Shown piece by piece: positions 2,742 through 59,576 of a stretch of DNA of 64,000 nucleotides; the first letter of the stretch is position 1; each line of letters begins with the position of its first letter. The stretch spans positions 23,926-87,925 of the forward strand of contig CAUQZB010000007.1 in NCBI GenBank assembly GCA_963522835.1. Direction: 5' to 3'. The translations under genes were made by a program, and so were the position numbers. The notes under the pieces were generated by a model. It ran no database searches. It was not told where the DNA came from and was given only the letters and a program-made list of their open reading frames with translations. This stretch comes from an uncultured Candidatus Saccharibacteria bacterium. GTDB lineage: Bacteria > Patescibacteriota > Saccharimonadia > Saccharimonadales > Saccharimonadaceae.

Positions 2742-3803
2742 TTAGGGTGTCTTGGGCTGCTGCCGCTTGGCAATATCAATCAGCACATAGAGCTTATCCG
2801 TGCTCTGCATCAGGGTGATGGTGTCGTCCTGGTCGGTCATCCAGACGGTTGAGATAGCAAGACCTTCTGCGGCATGCTCGGCTTCGTCTACTTCATCGTC
2901 TGGCTCACCCCAGGCTGTTTGCCCAGCCTGCACATATTGGCGGTAGAGGTCGAGGCATTCTGCCGTGGGTGAACCATTAGCAAACCATACGACGACCATC
3001 GATACAGCACCACCTTCGCTCGACACCATAACGCGCAGCGGCCCATCATAATACCACCAGGTATTTTCCTCTTGCTTCATGAGCTGCCAGCCCTGGCTCT
3101 GCATTGTGGTATCAAGCTGCTGCAAAGACAGGGGCCATGACTGACGCTTGATGCGATCGATCCAGGCGGTGAATTGCTCTGGAGAGAAGTATGTCTCCTC
3201 ATGTAGCTCACTCTCCAGGCGCGGTAATGGATCAGGGCCAGGATAGGGACGAATCGTGCGCGGGCGGCGGGCACCATCGGACGGTGCACCAGTTTGCTCA
3301 CTGACAAGGACAAACATGATTGTCTTGTCCTCCTCATTGAGGTTGATACTAACGTACTCCCGCGAAGCTGGTGTTTGTGGAGCAAAACCCTTCCACACCG
3401 TACCAGTGAGATAACCCGTGTGTCGTACATCGGTCGGCCAGCCCCAGGCAGTGATACCTGCCGCACAGTACTCATCGTATAGTGTGCGGCACGCGTCTGC
3501 TGGTAATTGGTGAATTACATCGATGACTGGGCTACTCGCCACCGACGTTACAACGTCATTTTCTATTGTAGCAAGCAATGGCATGTGACCATCATAGTGC
3601 ATACACTGCTCGTGCCCTGTCTGCGGCTCTTGCTCACGTGGCTTGACGAGCTGCCAACCCAGCTCTTGGATGAGACTATCGTACACCTCATACGTCATTG
3701 GCCAGGGGAGTTTGCGAAGTGCATTAATGAGCGAGACAAGACGTGCGCCGTCAATCGGCGTGGGCTTGTCAGATGACTGAGTTGATGATTGGTCTGCCGG
3801 CAT
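2742..3803 (-). CDS. hypothetical protein with an internally duplicated ~150-aa domain (WP..GW..AWG motifs)
   Basis: Intact 353-codon ORF. The two halves share LPWPMTYEVYDSLIQELGWQL / QSWPLSLQQLDTTMQSQGWQL and GITAWGWPTD / GQTAWGEPDD. The same motifs occur in ORF 52187..52651. Confidence 0.6.
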   Translation of the reverse strand: MPADQSSTQSSDKPTPIDGARLVSLINALRKLPWPMTYEVYDSLIQELGWQLVKPREQEPQTGHEQCMHYDGHMPLLATIENDVVTSVASSPVIDVIHQLPADACRTLYDEYCAAGITAWGWPTDVRHTGYLTGTVWKGFAPQTPASREYVSINLNEEDKTIMFVLVSEQTGAPSDGARRPRTIRPYPGPDPLPRLESELHEETYFSPEQFTAWIDRIKRQSWPLSLQQLDTTMQSQGWQLMKQEENTWWYYDGPLRVMVSSEGGAVSMVVVWFANGSPTAECLDLYRQYVQAGQTAWGEPDDEVDEAEHAAEGLAISTVWMTDQDDTITLMQSTDKLYVLIDIAKRQQPKTP

Positions 3804-47977: not shown

Positions 47978-50473
47978 ATGACACATCGTTTTTCTATTTT
48001 TCAGGGGCGGCGGCGCCCGATGCTTTTTGTTGCACTTGGTGTGAGTATTACCCTGCTTGTAGGGAGTGTTATTGCTCTCTATTTAGTATCGCAGCCAAGT
48101 GCTCAGTCACCCAATGGCCGCAAAAAAACAATCGACCTTCTTACCAAGACAAATACCCAAACGCAGCAGCGTCGCATCACCTCACAGTTGGGTTTTAGTC
48201 TAGAGTACGACCCAGGAGTTATGACAGCAGAGGGGATTGTCCAAAATCCCAACAGTGAGCCAGGAACATTTCAGGGGCAAACATATAATGGCGATCAACT
48301 CCAAGAGGCACGCAACTACGGCATCATTACCCTACACCTCACTAACAAGACGTCTAGTACACCACAGCCAGCCGCTGCGCAGCAGTCACAACTTACTATT
48401 ACCGCTAACCGTAACAAAAATTACTTCGGTAGCAAAGACAGCATCCCTGAGTACAAGGGGAAGTCTAACCTTGACATCATCACCCAAGAGAAACGCAAAA
48501 GCCTTGCTCATGCTGGACGTGATGATGAGATCAACGAACGCGCTATTACTATCGCAGGCAAAAAATATCGTGAGCTTCACGTCAAACATCGCCTCAAAGC
48601 TCTTAATGGTCAGCTCACTATCTGGCGACAATCCTACTACTACCTAACCGTCCAGCACGACCGACCATATTGGCTTGCCGTAACCAACCTACCTGCCAAT
48701 GACCGCGATGCGCTCACTACCTGGCAAAATGTAATCTCTCGCGTCTCCTATACGCAGCCACAGGACGGTGCGCTATCTTCTAGCCAGCCCGTGATCGCAC
48801 GCCTAGCTGCAGCCAATAGACCAACCGACACCGCTAACATCCACGGCACAGTCGGCGACGACATTATGCTCAGTGTGGTAGCAAAAAATCAGCTAGCAAC
48901 AGTTAGAGTTGGTGCAATGCGCTGTGCTCGCCTCACCTTTCGCGTCCAGAGTAATACTCTCGCACTAGCAAAGGCTTGTAATGGCGGCATTGGGAGTGGG
49001 TCGATCGTGTCATCGGATGGCGTTGTTGTCACTAATGGCCACGTTGTCGAAACAACCGATACTGATCTCCTTGCCAATGCCTTCCCAACCTCCCAACAAG
49101 AGTGGGATAACTATGTCCAATTTGTCACTGGAGCGGGTTATGCAACTGAGACGCAGATACGCGAGCTTATCAGCCAAGTCGAAAACGATGATATGGCTGC
49201 CGCCCAAAAGCTTATAGCCTATCTGCAGCTTGTGCCAAAATCTAACATTACAGTAAGTAACAGTCGCACCGACTACGTTATCCAGACGTCTGATGATCCA
49301 ATCCGCCTTACAGAAGAAAATACCTGGCAAAAATCTGCCACCAACAAAACTGCGACACTCATTGACAAAGAAGTTGATACAGGTGATGTCGATCTCTCGT
49401 CTCGATATACCGACGTTGCACTCCTCAAGATGAGCGGTACATTCCCAACGATCCAACAGCTGTCGTCGCTCAGCTCAGTCCAAAACGGCGACCGCATTAC
49501 TGCAGTAGGGTACCCAGCGCTTGTTGATGGTGGCATTAGCACTAAGCAGTCTCGCACCATACCCACCGTTTCTACTGGTACGACAAGCAGGACACTGCGT
49601 GATGGCGGCGGGCACTCGCTTATTTTGACTACTACCGAGATCTCTTCTGGCAGTAGTGGTGGCCCTGCTTTTAATGCGAAGGGTGAGCAAGTTGGTATCA
49701 CAACATATGCGCGAGAATCATGCACGAAAGAAGAATCGTGCTTTGGTAGCGGTATTGCCCGAGATGCACAAGACGCACAAACTATGGCAACCAAGCAGCG
49801 TGTCTCCATTGCCACTAATGGTGAACTCACCAAACTATGGCAGACAGGTATCGATGAATTTGTTGCTGGGCGCTACAGCGCTGCAGCACGGTCATTTAGT
49901 AGTCTCAACAGCAAATACCCAGGTAATTATCTTGTAACAAAATTCCTATCAACCGCCCAGAATCAACCACGAGATGAAACCGACCAGACTACAACACCTA
50001 GCCCAGATGCTCGCAATGCAGACCCAAGTACAAATCCTGATACTAGCATCGATTACTCCTACACTCCGCTCACATCAAGCGAACGTAGTACGGTTGTCAT
50101 ACTTATCATCTGCTTTATGGTAATTATCGTGGTCGCGATTGCAGTAATTGGCTTCGCTATCTGGGCTGGCACCCGCAAGAAGAACTCTACTCAGCCGCGT
50201 TACCCCTACCCATTACGGCCAACAGCGCAGCCTGGGCAACCACCCGTTGGCTACACAAGTCAGCCACAACCACCCGTCCAGCAACCATATTATCCGCCCC
50301 AGTCTCAACCTCAGCCATATCCACCAACTCAGCAAGTTACACCAGTGCAGGCGCCTATGGTGCAGCCAGCAACACAGCCTTCATCACCAACTGATCCACT
50401 ACCACCACAGCAGCCGCAGGCTACTCAACCCTCAGCACCGACTGAGTCATCTACTCCCGCTCCATTCGAGTAA
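47978..50473 (+). CDS. membrane-anchored trypsin-like (S1C) serine protease with a second TM and a P/Q-rich C-terminal tail
   Basis: N-terminal TM, VVTNGHVVE (His), SSGSSGGPAFNAKGEQVGI (Ser), a late TM VVILIICFMVIIVVAIAVIGFAIWA, then a proline/glutamine-rich tail (QPGQPPVGYTSQPQPPVQQPYYPPQSQPQPYPP...). Confidence 0.8.
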   Translation: MTHRFSIFQGRRRPMLFVALGVSITLLVGSVIALYLVSQPSAQSPNGRKKTIDLLTKTNTQTQQRRITSQLGFSLEYDPGVMTAEGIVQNPNSEPGTFQGQTYNGDQLQEARNYGIITLHLTNKTSSTPQPAAAQQSQLTITANRNKNYFGSKDSIPEYKGKSNLDIITQEKRKSLAHAGRDDEINERAITIAGKKYRELHVKHRLKALNGQLTIWRQSYYYLTVQHDRPYWLAVTNLPANDRDALTTWQNVISRVSYTQPQDGALSSSQPVIARLAAANRPTDTANIHGTVGDDIMLSVVAKNQLATVRVGAMRCARLTFRVQSNTLALAKACNGGIGSGSIVSSDGVVVTNGHVVETTDTDLLANAFPTSQQEWDNYVQFVTGAGYATETQIRELISQVENDDMAAAQKLIAYLQLVPKSNITVSNSRTDYVIQTSDDPIRLTEENTWQKSATNKTATLIDKEVDTGDVDLSSRYTDVALLKMSGTFPTIQQLSSLSSVQNGDRITAVGYPALVDGGISTKQSRTIPTVSTGTTSRTLRDGGGHSLILTTTEISSGSSGGPAFNAKGEQVGITTYARESCTKEESCFGSGIARDAQDAQTMATKQRVSIATNGELTKLWQTGIDEFVAGRYSAAARSFSSLNSKYPGNYLVTKFLSTAQNQPRDETDQTTTPSPDARNADPSTNPDTSIDYSYTPLTSSERSTVVILIICFMVIIVVAIAVIGFAIWAGTRKKNSTQPRYPYPLRPTAQPGQPPVGYTSQPQPPVQQPYYPPQSQPQPYPPTQQVTPVQAPMVQPATQPSSPTDPLPPQQPQATQPSAPTESSTPAPFE

Positions 50474-51728: not shown

Positions 51729-52172
51729 TTATAGATTTGGTCGCCTCGACGCCATCTCAATCCCCAGATCAACCTCAAGCGGATCCTCGCCCTCGTCCAG
51801 CTCATCTACTTCTTCTGCGGAGTAGTAACGACCATCTTCTAGCTCTTCAGGAGCACGCCATGCGTAGTAAGTCAATGAAGCTGGTTCACTGATCTGAAGG
51901 ATGTCACGCAGGATGTGGATCGACTGTAATGAAAATGATGAATACTCTGAACTCAGCAACGGCAGTGAACGAGAGAAAGAGTGAGGATTCTCCTTATTCT
52001 TTAGAGTACACGATATGCCGCCATTCATTATAATGTACTCTATGTACTTTAAGTTCTCGTCACTCTTGTCATTATATATCAGTGTTATATGAGTGCGATC
52101 CTCTGCATGCATGAGTATTGCTGAAATTCTGCATGCGAATTCGTCCCATGTTATTGTGTTAATATTGTGCAC
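51729..52172 (-). CDS. hypothetical small acidic cytoplasmic protein
   Basis: 147-codon ORF that is AT-richer than its neighbours, with a very acidic C-terminus (EEVDELDEGEDPLEVDLGIE). It loosely resembles YbjN/T3SS-chaperone-like sensory domains, but this is unverified. Confidence 0.5.
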   Translation of the reverse strand: MHNINTITWDEFACRISAILMHAEDRTHITLIYNDKSDENLKYIEYIIMNGGISCTLKNKENPHSFSRSLPLLSSEYSSFSLQSIHILRDILQISEPASLTYYAWRAPEELEDGRYYSAEEVDELDEGEDPLEVDLGIEMASRRPNL

Positions 52173-52186
52173 TTGTCAGCCTCCTT

Positions 52187-52651
52187 TTAGTCTTCATTTA
52201 GTATCTGTGTGAATTGAGGAGAGTGAAGAAATATGCCAACAGATGAACGGGTGTTACTTAGCTGTAGTTGGCATCCTGTAATGGACGTCCATATCGCAGT
52301 CTCATCCTCCTGCTCGCGAACAATTTTTGGGTCGCCCCAGGCTGCCTTTCCGGCATTAACGTAGCCTACGAATGTATCGTTCATAAAAACATCGCGAGCG
52401 CTAGAACTAACTATGTCTACGTCAGTTAGACTCCAAGAAATAGTGTTCAGGCCTGCAACTGGATCAGAGGTCACCATGAGCATCGGGCGATTAACTGGAA
52501 TATCTTTAGCAATACTACTCGCGTCACTTTCGTCCCAGCCTAGTTTTTCCATAGCCGCTGTCAACTTATCTTCCGTGAGTGGCCAATCTTGGTTGACCCA
52601 GTAATTTACAAGTTCAGCAAATCTTTGTGGGGTAATGCTGTTCCATGTCAT
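52187..52651 (-). CDS. hypothetical protein, single copy of the WP..GW..AWG domain
   Basis: 154-codon ORF. QDWPLTEDKLTAAMEKLGWDE and GKAAWGDPKI match both halves of ORF 2742..3803. Confidence 0.55.
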   Translation of the reverse strand: MTWNSITPQRFAELVNYWVNQDWPLTEDKLTAAMEKLGWDESDASSIAKDIPVNRPMLMVTSDPVAGLNTISWSLTDVDIVSSSARDVFMNDTFVGYVNAGKAAWGDPKIVREQEDETAIWTSITGCQLQLSNTRSSVGIFLHSPQFTQILNED

Positions 52652-52745
52652 GATGATAGTATTATACCACCATCATATCCTACACACCATCGCTATTTTG
52701 TGCTATCACACTACTGCTCTGTGCGTGGTTCATCGTGTCATAATA

Positions 52746-53462
52746 CTATCTCGGCACGCAGCGGTACACCACTGTTTGGTCTCGCATGCATAACTGCACA
52801 ACTGGTGCAATAACTCCTGCCGTCTTGAGCGTATCGGGCGACGACCAATCGTAGCGTGGCCCTCCCTCACTGCCATATTCAATCGGCGCAACGACTAGAT
52901 TGTAATAATGATGCATTAGCACCAGCGCACGCAACGGATCGACAAGCGGCGCGGTTGCCATCGGCTCATCAGACATATCAAGCTCGAGTGTTTGCCATGC
53001 TGCGTCGGGTATCTCCTCAGTCTCCTCGGATGCGTTATATCTATCATAGCTCACAGCCAAGCCACTACCGTTATAGCCAAGACCTGGCAGTTTCTCAGCA
53101 TAGTCTGGCAGGTACGCCGCGATGGCAAGGTCGATATTCTCTGGTAGGGTTTTATCCGCATCATAGCCCGTCCGCTTAGTCAGTGGCAGATCCTCAGGTG
53201 GCAGCCCAGCACTGAGGTACGCTTCGCACACAATGAGGTCGCCCAGTATAATCGTCGCTTCGTTGATGTCGTGATTGTTATATTCGCTATTCTCATATGC
53301 TCTGCGGCGCACTGCATCATATACCACAGTCAAGGCGGCAATCTTCTGGTCTGACGGCGATGGTTCTTGCTCTGCCTGTGGTGTAGCTGTCTTTTCTGAT
53401 AGAGTCTCGTGATTCATATCGACTATGATGGGGCATCCCTTGGCGCTTGTCAAGCAATGCAT
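52746..53462 (-). CDS. hypothetical acidic protein
   Basis: 238-codon ORF. The start is uncertain between 53462 and ATG 53417 (MNHETLSEK). No family recognised. Confidence 0.5.
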   Translation of the reverse strand: MHCLTSAKGCPIIVDMNHETLSEKTATPQAEQEPSPSDQKIAALTVVYDAVRRRAYENSEYNNHDINEATIILGDLIVCEAYLSAGLPPEDLPLTKRTGYDADKTLPENIDLAIAAYLPDYAEKLPGLGYNGSGLAVSYDRYNASEETEEIPDAAWQTLELDMSDEPMATAPLVDPLRALVLMHHYYNLVVAPIEYGSEGGPRYDWSSPDTLKTAGVIAPVVQLCMRDQTVVYRCVPR

Positions 53463-53546: not shown

Positions 53547-53870
53547 ATGCTTGAGAGGTTTAAGTTATTCAAAGAAAAAGACCCTACTAAACCGTCTTTG
53601 AGAGGGTCAGAAGTTTATGTTCACTCGGGTCTGTGGGATCCATGAGGAGCACTTGAAGGTGATGGGATTGACGACCCAGATAAAGTACGGTATCTTGTTG
53701 AAATTATAGAAGCATATAATGCTGTCGACGACACAACACCCGAGGGTGCTATTGAGAGGGAAAGACTTGCAAATGAATTTACTAGAGCGGTAGAACTCGG
53801 GCACGCTGCTGTACTAGAAAGCAACACAGACACAGCATCAGAGGATCGTACTGACACTAGCAATGCGTAA
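53547..53870 (+). pseudogene. small acidic-protein gene interrupted by a single in-frame TGA (53643-53645); pseudogene or recoding candidate
   Basis: GAGGGAG lies 5 nt upstream of ATG 53547. After 32 codons comes TGA, and the same frame then stays open for 74 more sense codons to TAA 53868-53870 with no in-frame ATG/GTG/TTG. A strong terminator follows at 53909-53940. Confidence 0.45.
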
Positions 53871-56469: not shown

Positions 56470-56665
56470 CCTCTTTAGTGTAGCAGAATTTGCCAGTTGG
56501 TGCGAGGTATGGTACGGTGGATTTATGGCTTGGTATGCGAGCTACAGGATCGTAGTTAGCCAAGGACGAATCGCGATGAATATAGTGGGCGGAGTCTATT
56601 CTTATTTGCATAGCATTATAGAAATATGGTACGGTAGTTTTAGAAGCACTAGTGTGGAGGATTCT

Positions 56666-56893
56666 ATGACAGACCACGAGAACAGACCAAGCGCGAGCGA
56701 GATTAGTCAAGCACACGAGAGTGATCAGACAGCAACCTTGCGGCAAAAATTCGGAGCGAAATTTCTAGAGCTAGCCGAAAGAACAAAAGGTTTCATAGAC
56801 ACCGCACGAATGATATACTGGCACGGCTTCCCGCTCCCTCCATATGAAAAGGATAAACCGGCAACTCCTAGAGAAATGAATTCAGAGAAATAA
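56666..56893 (+). CDS. small hypothetical protein
   Basis: GGAGGA lies 5 nt upstream of ATG 56666 (MTDHENRPSASEISQ...). The ORF-track start at 56525 lacks such a signal. Confidence 0.4.
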   Translation: MTDHENRPSASEISQAHESDQTATLRQKFGAKFLELAERTKGFIDTARMIYWHGFPLPPYEKDKPATPREMNSEK

Positions 56894-57671: not shown

Positions 57672-57929
57672 TGTTTTAGTATAGCAAATAAACGCGCGTT
57701 ATCTCGCCTTTTGGCATGACACGCCCCGCCTCTTCCTTTCAAACCTCTGCAATTATCCGTATGCCCAAAAATACTATAAGAGTGAATCTAGAATAATATC
57801 AGCCTGCTACATCAGACTTGAGAATATGATAGTCCTGGCAGCAGAACATTGTACTCCACTCGAATATAATAGCAAATAGAGAAGCTAACAAATAAAGTGC
57901 AGAGGTCTTACTCCTTAAGTTCCTTTTGG

Positions 57930-57958
57930 TTGACAACTCCCTCTTCCTCCACTATGGT
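57930..57958 (+). promoter_or_regulatory. promoter TTGACA-17 nt-TATGGT
   Basis: TTGACA at 57930-57935 and TATGGT at 57953-57958. ATG 57966 lies 7 nt downstream, consistent with a leaderless mRNA. Confidence 0.5.
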
Positions 57959-57965
57959 ATGTACT

Positions 57966-59576
57966 ATGACAAATCCTCCAGATGATACCACTACTACCCA
58001 GCAACAAAGGCTACAGGCAAGTCAGCTCCCAATCGACCCAGTCAAGATAAAAGCAATGATCGACTACTACATTGTGGAGTATCGCGAGCAGTTACTCGAT
58101 AGAGATTTGCTCGAGCAGGCGATCGCGAAGGACGAAATACTCTGGGATGTTGATATATGGGGAATAATCTCTAATCTCACCACCGCTCTACATCAGTCCA
58201 ATTGTGACCCCTACTTCGATAGTGATTGCGATGAGCAGACTATTCTCGAGTGTAGACGCTTCACCACCGATCTCCTACGCGACCTGCAAAAGGTCAGCCA
58301 AGACATCCCTGGTCTTGCTGCGAAGCTTCCCGAGATTAAGCAGCATGTCTGGGAGCTTCTTGACGTCATCTTGCCAGATTCGCAGCCGACACAAGCAATG
58401 CGGTCAAGCACTCTTGAACTCCAGCGCGATGAGTCTGGCACTGTCTCGCTCCAAACAATCCCTGCCGATCTTGAGCCACATGAGCTCTTTCATCAGCGAT
58501 ATCGTGAGTATATCAAAATGGGTGATATACCAGATGGAATAGCCCGATTGCAGGAGCTACGCGAATCGCTCGATGCTCGTATTGCTGCCGCCAGAGATAT
58601 GCAGCGCGATGATATCGATTGGCCTTTTTATCACCTTCTCGGCGATGCCGATACCCTCCACTTGCGCACTCAAGATGCTCATGATTTTACTCGCATTTGC
58701 ACGATTGCGAGCCTTTGCCAAGAAATGGCCTATCGGCACTTTAGATATAACCCTGCGACAACAACACCCTCGCAAGATCGAGAAGTCAGTCAATATATTT
58801 CATCAGCTCAGCAAGAACTGGGCACGATCATCGAGCTCCTTCTCAAATTCGATGATGATGGCGTAGCGAAGGCGCAGCAACTCGAACGGTATGTCATCAG
58901 CCCCTACATCAAGGCAGAAATCGATGCCGAGTACGTCATACATGGCAAAGATTCAGACGGCACACGCCAAGCTCGCGCTATCGCCTATGTCATTGTACCC
59001 GAAGATGAAGAGTATGTGCTCCATCCTATTGTTAATTCCTTGAACGACCAGCGCTTTATCTTCGACCAGCGGATTCGTGATGCCTACATTGCCATCATCA
59101 CCAAGCATCCATCAGAGCGATCTTCTTCACAGTTATTTGACGACTACTATCTTGTAAAGCTCTGTGCCAAGCATGGCGAGCAAGCGGTCGCTCGGAAGGC
59201 CGCTTGGGACATGGTGAACTATTATTTCTATCAAACAGATGAGATAGAGAAGATCCATTTCTATGTGCTTTTGCTCAAAGACGAGCTAGGAGAAGGTGAG
59301 AAAGTCAAGCAGTGGGTCACGCAACAGCTGCGAGACAACCCAAGCGCCGAACTCGCTACGCTTTATTTTGAATGTATTGGTTATGATCATGACGTATTTC
59401 GCTTTTTGCAAGAGGCCACCGCACGTGAAGCAGACTCACCGATGAAGGCACTGGCCCAACAAGTTGAGAATCTTAATACGCTCGAAAGTGCTGTCAGCGA
59501 CTGTCTTTACGATTTCGTCGAGAAGCAAGAAGCCGCTGAAGAGCAGCAGCATCTCCACGCAGAATCAGCACAATAG
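57966..59576 (+). CDS. hypothetical acidic, predicted all-helical cytoplasmic protein
   Basis: Long intact ORF. I chose the start ATG 57966 (MTNPPDD...) from the promoter position. No family recognised. Confidence 0.55.
   Translation: MTNPPDDTTTTQQQRLQASQLPIDPVKIKAMIDYYIVEYREQLLDRDLLEQAIAKDEILWDVDIWGIISNLTTALHQSNCDPYFDSDCDEQTILECRRFTTDLLRDLQKVSQDIPGLAAKLPEIKQHVWELLDVILPDSQPTQAMRSSTLELQRDESGTVSLQTIPADLEPHELFHQRYREYIKMGDIPDGIARLQELRESLDARIAAARDMQRDDIDWPFYHLLGDADTLHLRTQDAHDFTRICTIASLCQEMAYRHFRYNPATTTPSQDREVSQYISSAQQELGTIIELLLKFDDDGVAKAQQLERYVISPYIKAEIDAEYVIHGKDSDGTRQARAIAYVIVPEDEEYVLHPIVNSLNDQRFIFDQRIRDAYIAIITKHPSERSSSQLFDDYYLVKLCAKHGEQAVARKAAWDMVNYYFYQTDEIEKIHFYVLLLKDELGEGEKVKQWVTQQLRDNPSAELATLYFECIGYDHDVFRFLQEATAREADSPMKALAQQVENLNTLESAVSDCLYDFVEKQEAAEEQQHLHAESAQ

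Follow-up and report, generated by a model that had tools for sequence, protein, structure and literature searches.

A DUF6301 and TY-Chap3 gene pair in a Candidatus Saccharibacteria genome, a probable orphan two-part immunity against a polymorphic-toxin family

Arrays of EsaG (DUF600) proteins provide immunity against EsaD, a nuclease toxin of the type VII secretion system (T7SS) of Staphylococcus aureus, and orphan EsaG copies occur in genomes that lack the toxin. Orphan cdiI genes and orphan immunity genes of type VI secretion systems (T6SS) are also known. The acquired interbacterial defence (AID) clusters reportedly described by Ross et al. in 2019 are said to lie on recombinase-bearing mobile elements and to target T6SS effectors of Bacteroidales, and polyimmunity loci and tandem-domain immunity proteins such as SUKH repeats were reportedly described by Zhang et al. 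in 2012. The window analysed here is a stretch of 64,000 nucleotides from an uncultured Candidatus Saccharibacteria bacterium, part of a 1.03 Mb assembly that is 98% complete. The organism is a tiny epibiont that lives attached to Actinomyces. Three consecutive genes of the window, here called P1, P2 and P3, had been proposed in a first-pass annotation to form an immunity or anti-effector cassette. The gene context of their homologues, with adjacent toxin genes, tandem arrays and fusions, leads us to consider it probable that P2 and P1 are an orphan two-part immunity against a polymorphic-toxin family. The proposal thus stands for P2 and P1; for P3 no evidence of any role was obtained. The features concerned are the following.

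P1: 51729..52172, minus strand, 147 aa, shortened TY-Chap3-type protein with a conserved acidic C-terminal extension, allele class A (from the list of open reading frames and an alignment)
P1 C-terminal extension: 51732..51866, minus strand, last ~45 residues with the motif ...ELD.G.DPLEVDLGIE..., nearly invariant (from the ratio of nonsynonymous to synonymous polymorphism, pN/pS)
P2: 52187..52651, minus strand, 154 aa, DUF6301 protein, predicted immunity component (Pfam PF19818)
P3: 52746..53417, minus strand, 223 aa, acidic clade-restricted ORFan; the open frame extends to 53462, which gives 238 aa

The family assignment of P2 is straightforward. It matches DUF6301 (PF19818) above the gathering threshold, with 66.1 bits at a cut-off of 27.2 (E 4.6e-18) over profile positions 3-137 of 137, and its residues W23-P24, G38-W39, G106 and S144-P145 are invariant and common to 34 DUF6301 members. 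A protein atlas returned only DUF6301 clusters. The family is rare outside the Actinomycetaceae; of 200 genomes sampled from the class, one more has it. The literature searched contained no description of DUF6301 as an immunity family. For P1 the assignment depends on its longer relatives. TY-Chap3 (PF22552) was defined as a circularly permuted fold of the T3SS (type III secretion system) chaperone/YbjN type that occurs in predicted ADP-ribose-countering (ARG-centred) systems (Iyer et al. 2022, PMC9503650). The P1 of the window scores 18.9 bits at a cut-off of 27 and aligns to profile positions 2-54 only, a sub-threshold match that agrees with the earlier impression of a YbjN/T3SS-chaperone-like protein. 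Other alleles of P1 (classes B and C, see below) have 172 aa; in an alignment they are ~50% identical to the window P1 over its full length and have 28 extra residues. A class-B copy on an Actinomyces scaffold scores 46 bits over the whole TY-Chap3 profile, and a fused form described below reaches 67-68 bits. Because of these scores, P1 is regarded as a shortened TY-Chap3 homologue. Its acidic tail is an addition to the domain: other TY-Chap3 proteins of Actinomycetaceae stop at the point that corresponds to the onset of the tail in P1, and neither DUF6301 nor a toxin gene was found within 1.5 kb of their genes.

The immunity assignment comes from the neighbours of DUF6301 genes in Actinomycetaceae. 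The first-pass annotation had suggested that the neighbourhoods of homologues be surveyed for linked toxin domains, and this survey places DUF6301 directly downstream of proteins with a PD-(D/E)xK-like tail. DUF6301 is present in 10 of 151 Actinomycetaceae genomes, often in tandem arrays. A local hidden Markov model (HMM) detected arrays of 4 to ~10 copies in five genomes; one genome has 8 + 7 copies at two sites, and three others have ~10, 7 and 5. At nine loci in eight genomes the first DUF6301 gene directly follows a larger gene on the same strand, with a gap of 10-33 nt where measured. The last ~210 residues of the proteins encoded upstream form one family with the invariant pattern D...ExKG...Q...Y...D, a motif that suggests a PD-(D/E)xK-like nuclease. 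This putative toxin tail is attached to unrelated N-terminal parts, which are Gly/His-rich and of low complexity, helical followed by transmembrane (TM)-like segments, or helical alone, and one N-terminal type bears two different tails. Such an exchange of tails and N-termini looks like the domain shuffling typical of polymorphic toxins. In one array (L115) tail fragments of 42-43 residues, 86-88% identical, lie between the DUF6301 copies. The tail family was found in 9 of the 151 genomes, DUF6301 in 10 and both in 7; since these genomes are interrelated, only counts are given. Taken together, the adjacency, the arrays, the tail fragments and the shuffling are hallmarks of polymorphic toxin/immunity loci.

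A different organization was observed at another Actinomycetaceae locus (L113, G275:C1:997000-1016999). Here 508-aa proteins have a different C-terminal tail with an E-V-K motif, and each 508-aa gene is followed by ~165-aa genes of another family that alternate with DUF6301 genes, with a DDE transposase between them. This appears to be a mixed immunity array.

The connection between the two components is seen in both phyla. P2 and P1 genes are adjacent in the Saccharibacteria cassette and on the Actinomyces scaffold. In two Saccharibacteria genomes (G466 and G438) a 370-aa protein fuses a DUF6301-like domain (22-24 bits with Pfam, E 5e-8 with the family HMM) to TY-Chap3 and a related C-terminal motif. 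The gene for this fusion overlaps by 23 nt the end of an upstream gene that encodes the toxin tail (E about 4e-14). The other proteins of the G438 contig are 98-100% identical to those of the window's contig and syntenic with them, so this toxin-fusion module sits in a Saccharibacteria chromosome. Homologues of P2 are thus located downstream of a toxin gene at nine Actinomycetaceae and two Saccharibacteria loci; in the window it is P3 that precedes P2. The window has DUF6301 domains at one further place.

Second DUF6301 locus of the window: 2742..3803, minus strand, 353 aa with two DUF6301 domains, adjoins metG

At this metG site relatives encode a 1256-aa protein (L147:705-4475) with at least five DUF6301-like repeats and one TY-Chap3 domain, which is again followed by a motif related to the P1 tail. 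The locus of the 353-aa and 1256-aa proteins looks like one for a fused poly-immunity protein.

The absence of a toxin gene noted earlier for the window holds for the whole 1.03 Mb assembly as far as the toxin domain identified here is concerned. A tblastn search of the assembly, for which four toxin tails served as queries, reached E 0.88 at best, and the toxin-tail HMM had no match at E 10 in its 9516 frames. The window genome likewise has neither the FtsK/SpoIIIE-type ATPase nor any of the three small helical proteins encoded at the Actinomyces locus, and the relatives examined lack the toxin tail at their cassette loci. Because the window genome itself lacks the tail, P2 and P1 are orphans in it. 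Two other frames of this genome deserve mention. One is a third DUF6301-like frame (G000:C5:17582-18178, family HMM E 9.5e-7), and the other (G000:C1:147552-148274) is an 88%-identical homologue of a 241-aa gene that follows a toxin-like gene on another contig (G448:C3). Each of the two may be a further orphan immunity gene.

The pattern of variation in the P2-P1 module is uneven. Its DNA falls into three allele classes, A (the window), B and C; identity is 64-79% from one class to another and averages ~89-95% inside a class. In P2, pN/pS is 0.02-0.10 over the first 35 residues and 0.35-0.52 in the C-terminal half. In P1 the N-terminal two thirds have values of 0.4-1.0, and the last ~45-50 residues 0.04-0.15 at a pS of 0.17-0.39 (35 sequences). 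Since synonymous changes accumulate in the tail, its invariance reflects selection on the protein. The variation is thus concentrated in the middle of the module, in the C-terminal half of P2 and the N-terminal two thirds of P1.

A close copy of the module is present in a host genus. On a scaffold of Actinomyces sp. oral taxon 170 F0386 the gene order is an FtsK/SpoIIIE ATPase, three helical proteins of 84-93 aa, a 383-aa protein with all invariant residues of the toxin tail, DUF6301, tailed TY-Chap3, and a protein with an ApeA N-terminal domain. The island has 43-53% guanine plus cytosine (GC) and lies within DNA of 62-70% GC. A stretch of 1008 bp that starts just ahead of P2 and extends to where P1 ends is 90-95% identical to the class-B alleles of Saccharibacteria; the homology ends at the module borders, and in a tree the Actinomyces P2-P1 copy nests inside class B. 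Contamination by Saccharibacteria DNA was considered and, for this scaffold, rejected: the flanks have 62-70% GC, there are no Ns, and the Saccharibacteria flanking genes are absent. The simplest reading is a recent transfer of the module into Actinomyces from a Saccharibacterium or from a shared mobile element. On a 13.7-kb contig that was binned with a Saccharibacteria genome there are proteins with 95-98% identity to the Actinomyces ATPase and to two of the helical proteins. No WXG100 or LXG match was found in the small helical proteins or the toxin N-termini (best E 0.5), and a T7SS-like secretion route is for that reason proposed by analogy, from the gene order and the FtsK/SpoIIIE ATPase.

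Other DNA is shared with the same scaffold. A repeat located at several contig ends of the window genome (C7:90072-90737, C1:164267-164567 and C3:141705-142146) and at C8:8943-10094 has 89-95% DNA identity to parts of the scaffold of Actinomyces oral taxon 170. Among these parts is a 532-aa open reading frame (L150:234-1832), adjacent to the toxin island, that by eye resembles a large serine recombinase. Such sequence sharing suggests that epibiont and host have a mobile element in common.

If P2 and P1 form an immunity pair, they would together bind and block an incoming toxin tail in the cytoplasm. The toxin could come from Actinomyces hosts or from rival Saccharibacteria strains. The variable stretch, composed of the C-terminal half of P2 and the N-terminal two thirds of P1 and represented by at least three deeply diverged allele classes, would set toxin specificity. 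The conserved ends, which are the N-terminus of P2 and the tail of P1, would carry a common function and also provide the homology for swapping the whole ~1 kb module. More speculatively, the acidic tail of P1 may contact the invariant catalytic region of the toxin. A wider scenario is put forward tentatively, namely that the epibiont keeps several old allele classes of this two-part immunity as a counter-defence against nuclease-type toxins, delivered by Actinomyces hosts or rival epibionts via an Esx/T7SS-like route, and that the ~1 kb module moves, with toxin and recombinase genes, across phyla between epibiont and host. According to a 2026 preprint, Schaalia odontolytica restricts a Saccharibacterium through Esx-secreted effectors, and counter-measures of the epibiont are expected, yet to be found (PMC13622651). 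The effectors of that study are different proteins, so it provides context and not evidence for the cassette.

Several observations weigh against an immunity function. The P1 of the window is below the TY-Chap3 cut-off and 28 residues short, and the role described for TY-Chap3 is that of a chaperone within ADP-ribose-related defence systems and not that of an immunity protein (PMC9503650). No Pfam family matched the toxin tail, and nothing below E 0.2 was found for it among PDB sequences; with no such relative, the term nuclease is taken from the motif itself. P2 is only 14-24% identical to members of the Actinomyces arrays, and for the class-A allele of the window no cognate toxin was found. 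The toxin-module contigs G466:C4 and G448:C3 are short, include stretches of high GC, have almost nothing in common with the window genome, and could be mobile elements or binning errors. Toxicity, binding and protection are all argued from gene context. The fold of P2 has only middling matches, of the Mog1/PsbP/DcrB/DUF1795 type, some of which are chaperones. Its AlphaFold2 (AF2) model is good (pLDDT 83, pTM 0.80). Foldseek found nothing in the PDB at E 0.001 or better, and a wide VIA search gave Z scores of 5.2-5.7, a range that is common for this tool, to DcrB, YjgB, PA94, SciW and an anti-CRISPR, all with a Mog1/PsbP-like arrangement of sheet and helix. A structural comparison had been proposed earlier as a check; for P2 it gave no confident match to an unrelated function, and the fold evidence neither supports nor contradicts an immunity role. 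The P3 model (pLDDT 46.5) was too poor for a structure search.

These points are best considered together with the alternatives. P1, and perhaps P2, could serve a secreted protein that is encoded at another place in the genome, as its peptide-binding chaperone or adaptor, with the P1 tail docking on a secretion ATPase. TY-Chap3 indeed belongs to the T3SS-chaperone/YbjN fold class and is a predicted chaperone (PMC9503650), the P2 model weakly resembles the DUF1795 Eag-type chaperones SciW and PA94 (Z 5.2-5.5), and the nearly invariant tail suggests a conserved partner. However, the arrays contain up to ten DUF6301 paralogues downstream of a toxin gene, an amplification that is not known for secretion chaperones, and the P2-P1 pair is kept in at least 30 genomes that have neither the toxin nor the FtsK-like ATPase module. 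The high amino-acid divergence also fits an arms race over specificity better than a housekeeping role, and we consider a chaperone function unlikely. The missing toxin could also mean that the cassette is a decaying remnant of a toxin-immunity locus with no present function. In line with this, the frame of the neighbouring small gene is broken by a nonsense codon in the window genome and by a frameshift in a relative, P3 has a frameshift in a relative too, and genomes differ in gene content. Such decay is hard to reconcile with three frames that are intact in ~30 species genomes at pN/pS 0.27-0.46, and with a P1 tail at 0.04-0.15 despite a pS of 0.17-0.39. The intact frames and low ratios point to selection on the proteins rather than neutral decay, which makes a functionless remnant quite improbable.

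Two other explanations involve different functions of the cassette. In the Actinomyces locus the module adjoins the ApeA N-terminal-domain protein within the low-GC island, and ApeA is a defence-associated family. TY-Chap3 itself was first defined in ARG-centred predicted defence systems (PMC9503650), so that an anti-phage module or one that counters ADP-ribosylation can be envisaged. Yet the ten flanking proteins scanned have no Macro, Nudix/WYL regulator, phosphatase or nuclease domain, no ARG or ADP-ribose-processing partner gene occurs beside the window cassette, in the related loci or in the Actinomyces locus, and the nearest neighbours are AI-2E and cysS. The cassette also lacks an enzymatic domain and gave no meaningful match in PADLOC, and a defence module of this kind is considered very improbable. 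It is equally improbable that P3 is itself a toxin neutralized by P2 and P1 in a self-contained addiction module. P3 is directly upstream of P2, the place that the toxin gene holds in the Actinomyces locus and in G466 and G438, but the relative G001 has P3 and lacks P2 and P1, there is no co-variation of P3 alleles with the P2-P1 classes, P3 is unlike the toxin tail (hhalign 0.15%), and no catalytic family was detected in it. The immunity reading of P2 and P1 is preferred over these alternatives, and the remaining observations concern the island that carries the pair.

Loci related to that of the window lie in Candidatus Saccharibacteria or Nanosynbacter genomes. P1 relatives were found in 34 Saccharibacteria species genomes, and wherever the contig reaches far enough the cassette is located between AI-2E and cysS. 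Four members of the genus that are more distant have AI-2E directly beside cysS, which represents the empty site, and a fifth has ~1.15 kb between the two genes. The cassette is an accessory island. Presence and absence across genomes, a comparison that had been recommended earlier, therefore indicate that the homologues do not belong to housekeeping operons. Proteins encoded in the flanks are 95-99% identical between genomes, as compared to 49-90% for P1, 64-95% for P2 and 65-96% for P3. Gene content varies, and one relative retains only P3 and the small divergent gene described below. No recombinase was found beside the cassette at its fixed Saccharibacteria site. A fourth gene of 166 aa, highly conserved, follows P1 in many relatives and lies between P1 and AI-2E (L052:8550-9050, L044:8472-8972, L076:8526-9026); it has no Pfam match and is absent from the window genome.

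The three consecutive minus-strand frames of 147, 154 and 238 aa reported by the first-pass annotation are present, and their general properties were largely described correctly. The isoelectric points are 4.54 (P1), 4.30 (P2) and 4.43 (P3), and no TM segment is predicted in any of them because the maximal 19-residue Kyte-Doolittle means are only 0.68-1.59. The GC contents of 0.44, 0.45 and 0.53, respectively, are lower than those of AI-2E (0.556) and cysS (0.588); the genome has 0.523. Acidic tails had been assigned to all three proteins. This is correct for P1, with 15 Asp or Glu among the last 45 residues; P2 is mildly acidic there, with 6 in the last 45, and P3 does not have such a tail. 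The gene for P1 starts with GTG, 14 nt past the P2 stop and with AAGGAGG (52180-52186) 7 nt upstream, an arrangement from which it follows that P2 and P1 are probably co-translated from one transcript. Overall pN/pS values are 0.46 for P1, 0.27 for P2 and 0.32 for P3 (30-34 genomes). The flanking genes have 0.03-0.09 (cysS, AI-2E, and those of the DHH protein and the SLT transglycosylase, which are the neighbours of the cassette in the window), and pS is also higher in the cassette. Since the three frames are under purifying selection, they are genes and not chance frames. Searches of NCBIfam gave nothing for P1, P2 or P3, and profiles of P1 and P2 gave nothing below E 0.2 against PDB sequences. 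No SUKH or Imm family of Pfam was found at E 1 or better for the three proteins, and none was listed by the fold searches with the P2 model, a result that does not imply exclusion.

P3 has a different character. Most of its database homologues start at the equivalent of Met16 (53417), which is probably the true start and gives the protein of 223 aa. It has 112 close homologues, all without a Pfam domain. A profile search of 1.84 billion representatives returned its own cluster and one weak repeat-protein match; there was no match in Pfam or PADLOC, no usable match in the protein atlas, and the profile search of the PDB was empty. BLASTP between P3 and the toxin tail was negative, as was hhalign (probability 0.15%). 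P3 alleles do not track the P2-P1 allele classes, and judged by these comparisons P3 is apparently an independent clade-specific module of the same variable island. Two features are located next to it.

Promoter-like site TTGACA-17-CATCAT: 53425..53453, minus strand, ends 8 nt before the ATG of P3 Met16 (weak pattern match)
Divergent small acidic gene of the same variable island: 53547..53870, plus strand, with a stop codon at 53643-53645 in the window genome

The promoter-pattern scan was not enriched overall, with 5 sites against 4.8 expected from shuffles. The stop codon in the small divergent gene is a TGG-to-TGA nonsense change: two related loci (L033 and L052) read TGG (Trp) and encode an intact acidic protein of ~110 aa, a third (L048) has a frameshift, and some of the related loci have the gene while others lack it. 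It seems to be a variable-island member in decay and not a case of recoding. Elsewhere in the window, a 559-aa frame (57897-59576, plus strand) and a 122-aa frame (56525-56893, plus strand) are also hypervariable, with 27-94% and 40-100% identity, respectively, among genomes with flanks of 95-99% identity, and the gene of an 831-aa trypsin-like protease (47978-50473, plus strand) is present in some genomes and missing in others.

If the proposed function is correct, DUF6301 and the tailed TY-Chap3 subfamily would acquire a testable role, namely two-part immunity, a toxin domain not described before would be defined in oral Actinomycetaceae, and the arms race between host and epibiont would be provided with concrete genes. 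The allele classes could then mark host range or strain compatibility in oral Saccharibacteria. The 90-95% identical Actinomyces DNA suggests that genes have recently passed between an ultra-small epibiont and the genus of its hosts. Should the counter-defence scenario also hold, it would be a first molecular answer to the question how Patescibacteria evade Esx attack by their hosts.

In view of the above, the cassette can be compared to the known systems. With the polyimmunity loci it shares clustered, family-diverse small immunity genes and repeated domains in one polypeptide, as in the 353-aa and 1256-aa DUF6301 proteins, but no SUKH or Imm family of Pfam matches P1, P2 or P3. The ARG-centred TY-Chap3 proteins belong to the same domain family as the P1 homologues (the longer alleles and the fusion score 46-68 bits). 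Unlike these, P1 has no ADP-ribose-processing partner, carries the extra conserved acidic extension, and is paired with DUF6301 and a toxin gene. AID clusters and other orphan immunity genes are similar in having no cognate toxin, in being variable between strains and horizontally exchanged, and in their presumed protection against toxins of neighbours. The Saccharibacteria cassette differs from AID clusters in that it occupies a single fixed place in the chromosome, flanked by housekeeping genes and with no recombinase next to it, and in that Gram-positive bacteria are the likely attackers; near the Actinomyces copy, unlike at the Saccharibacteria site, there is what appears by eye to be a large serine recombinase. 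The closest parallel known to us is EsaD/EsaG, where small cytoplasmic proteins are also encoded right after a secreted toxin with a nuclease-type C-terminal domain, and where tandem arrays and orphans occur as well. The families are unrelated (DUF6301 and TY-Chap3 as opposed to DUF600), and the toxin tail found here belongs to no described family. Compared to EsaG, the immunity proposed here would be a two-part one that is split, fused or multi-domain, with an orphan copy residing in an epibiont of another phylum.

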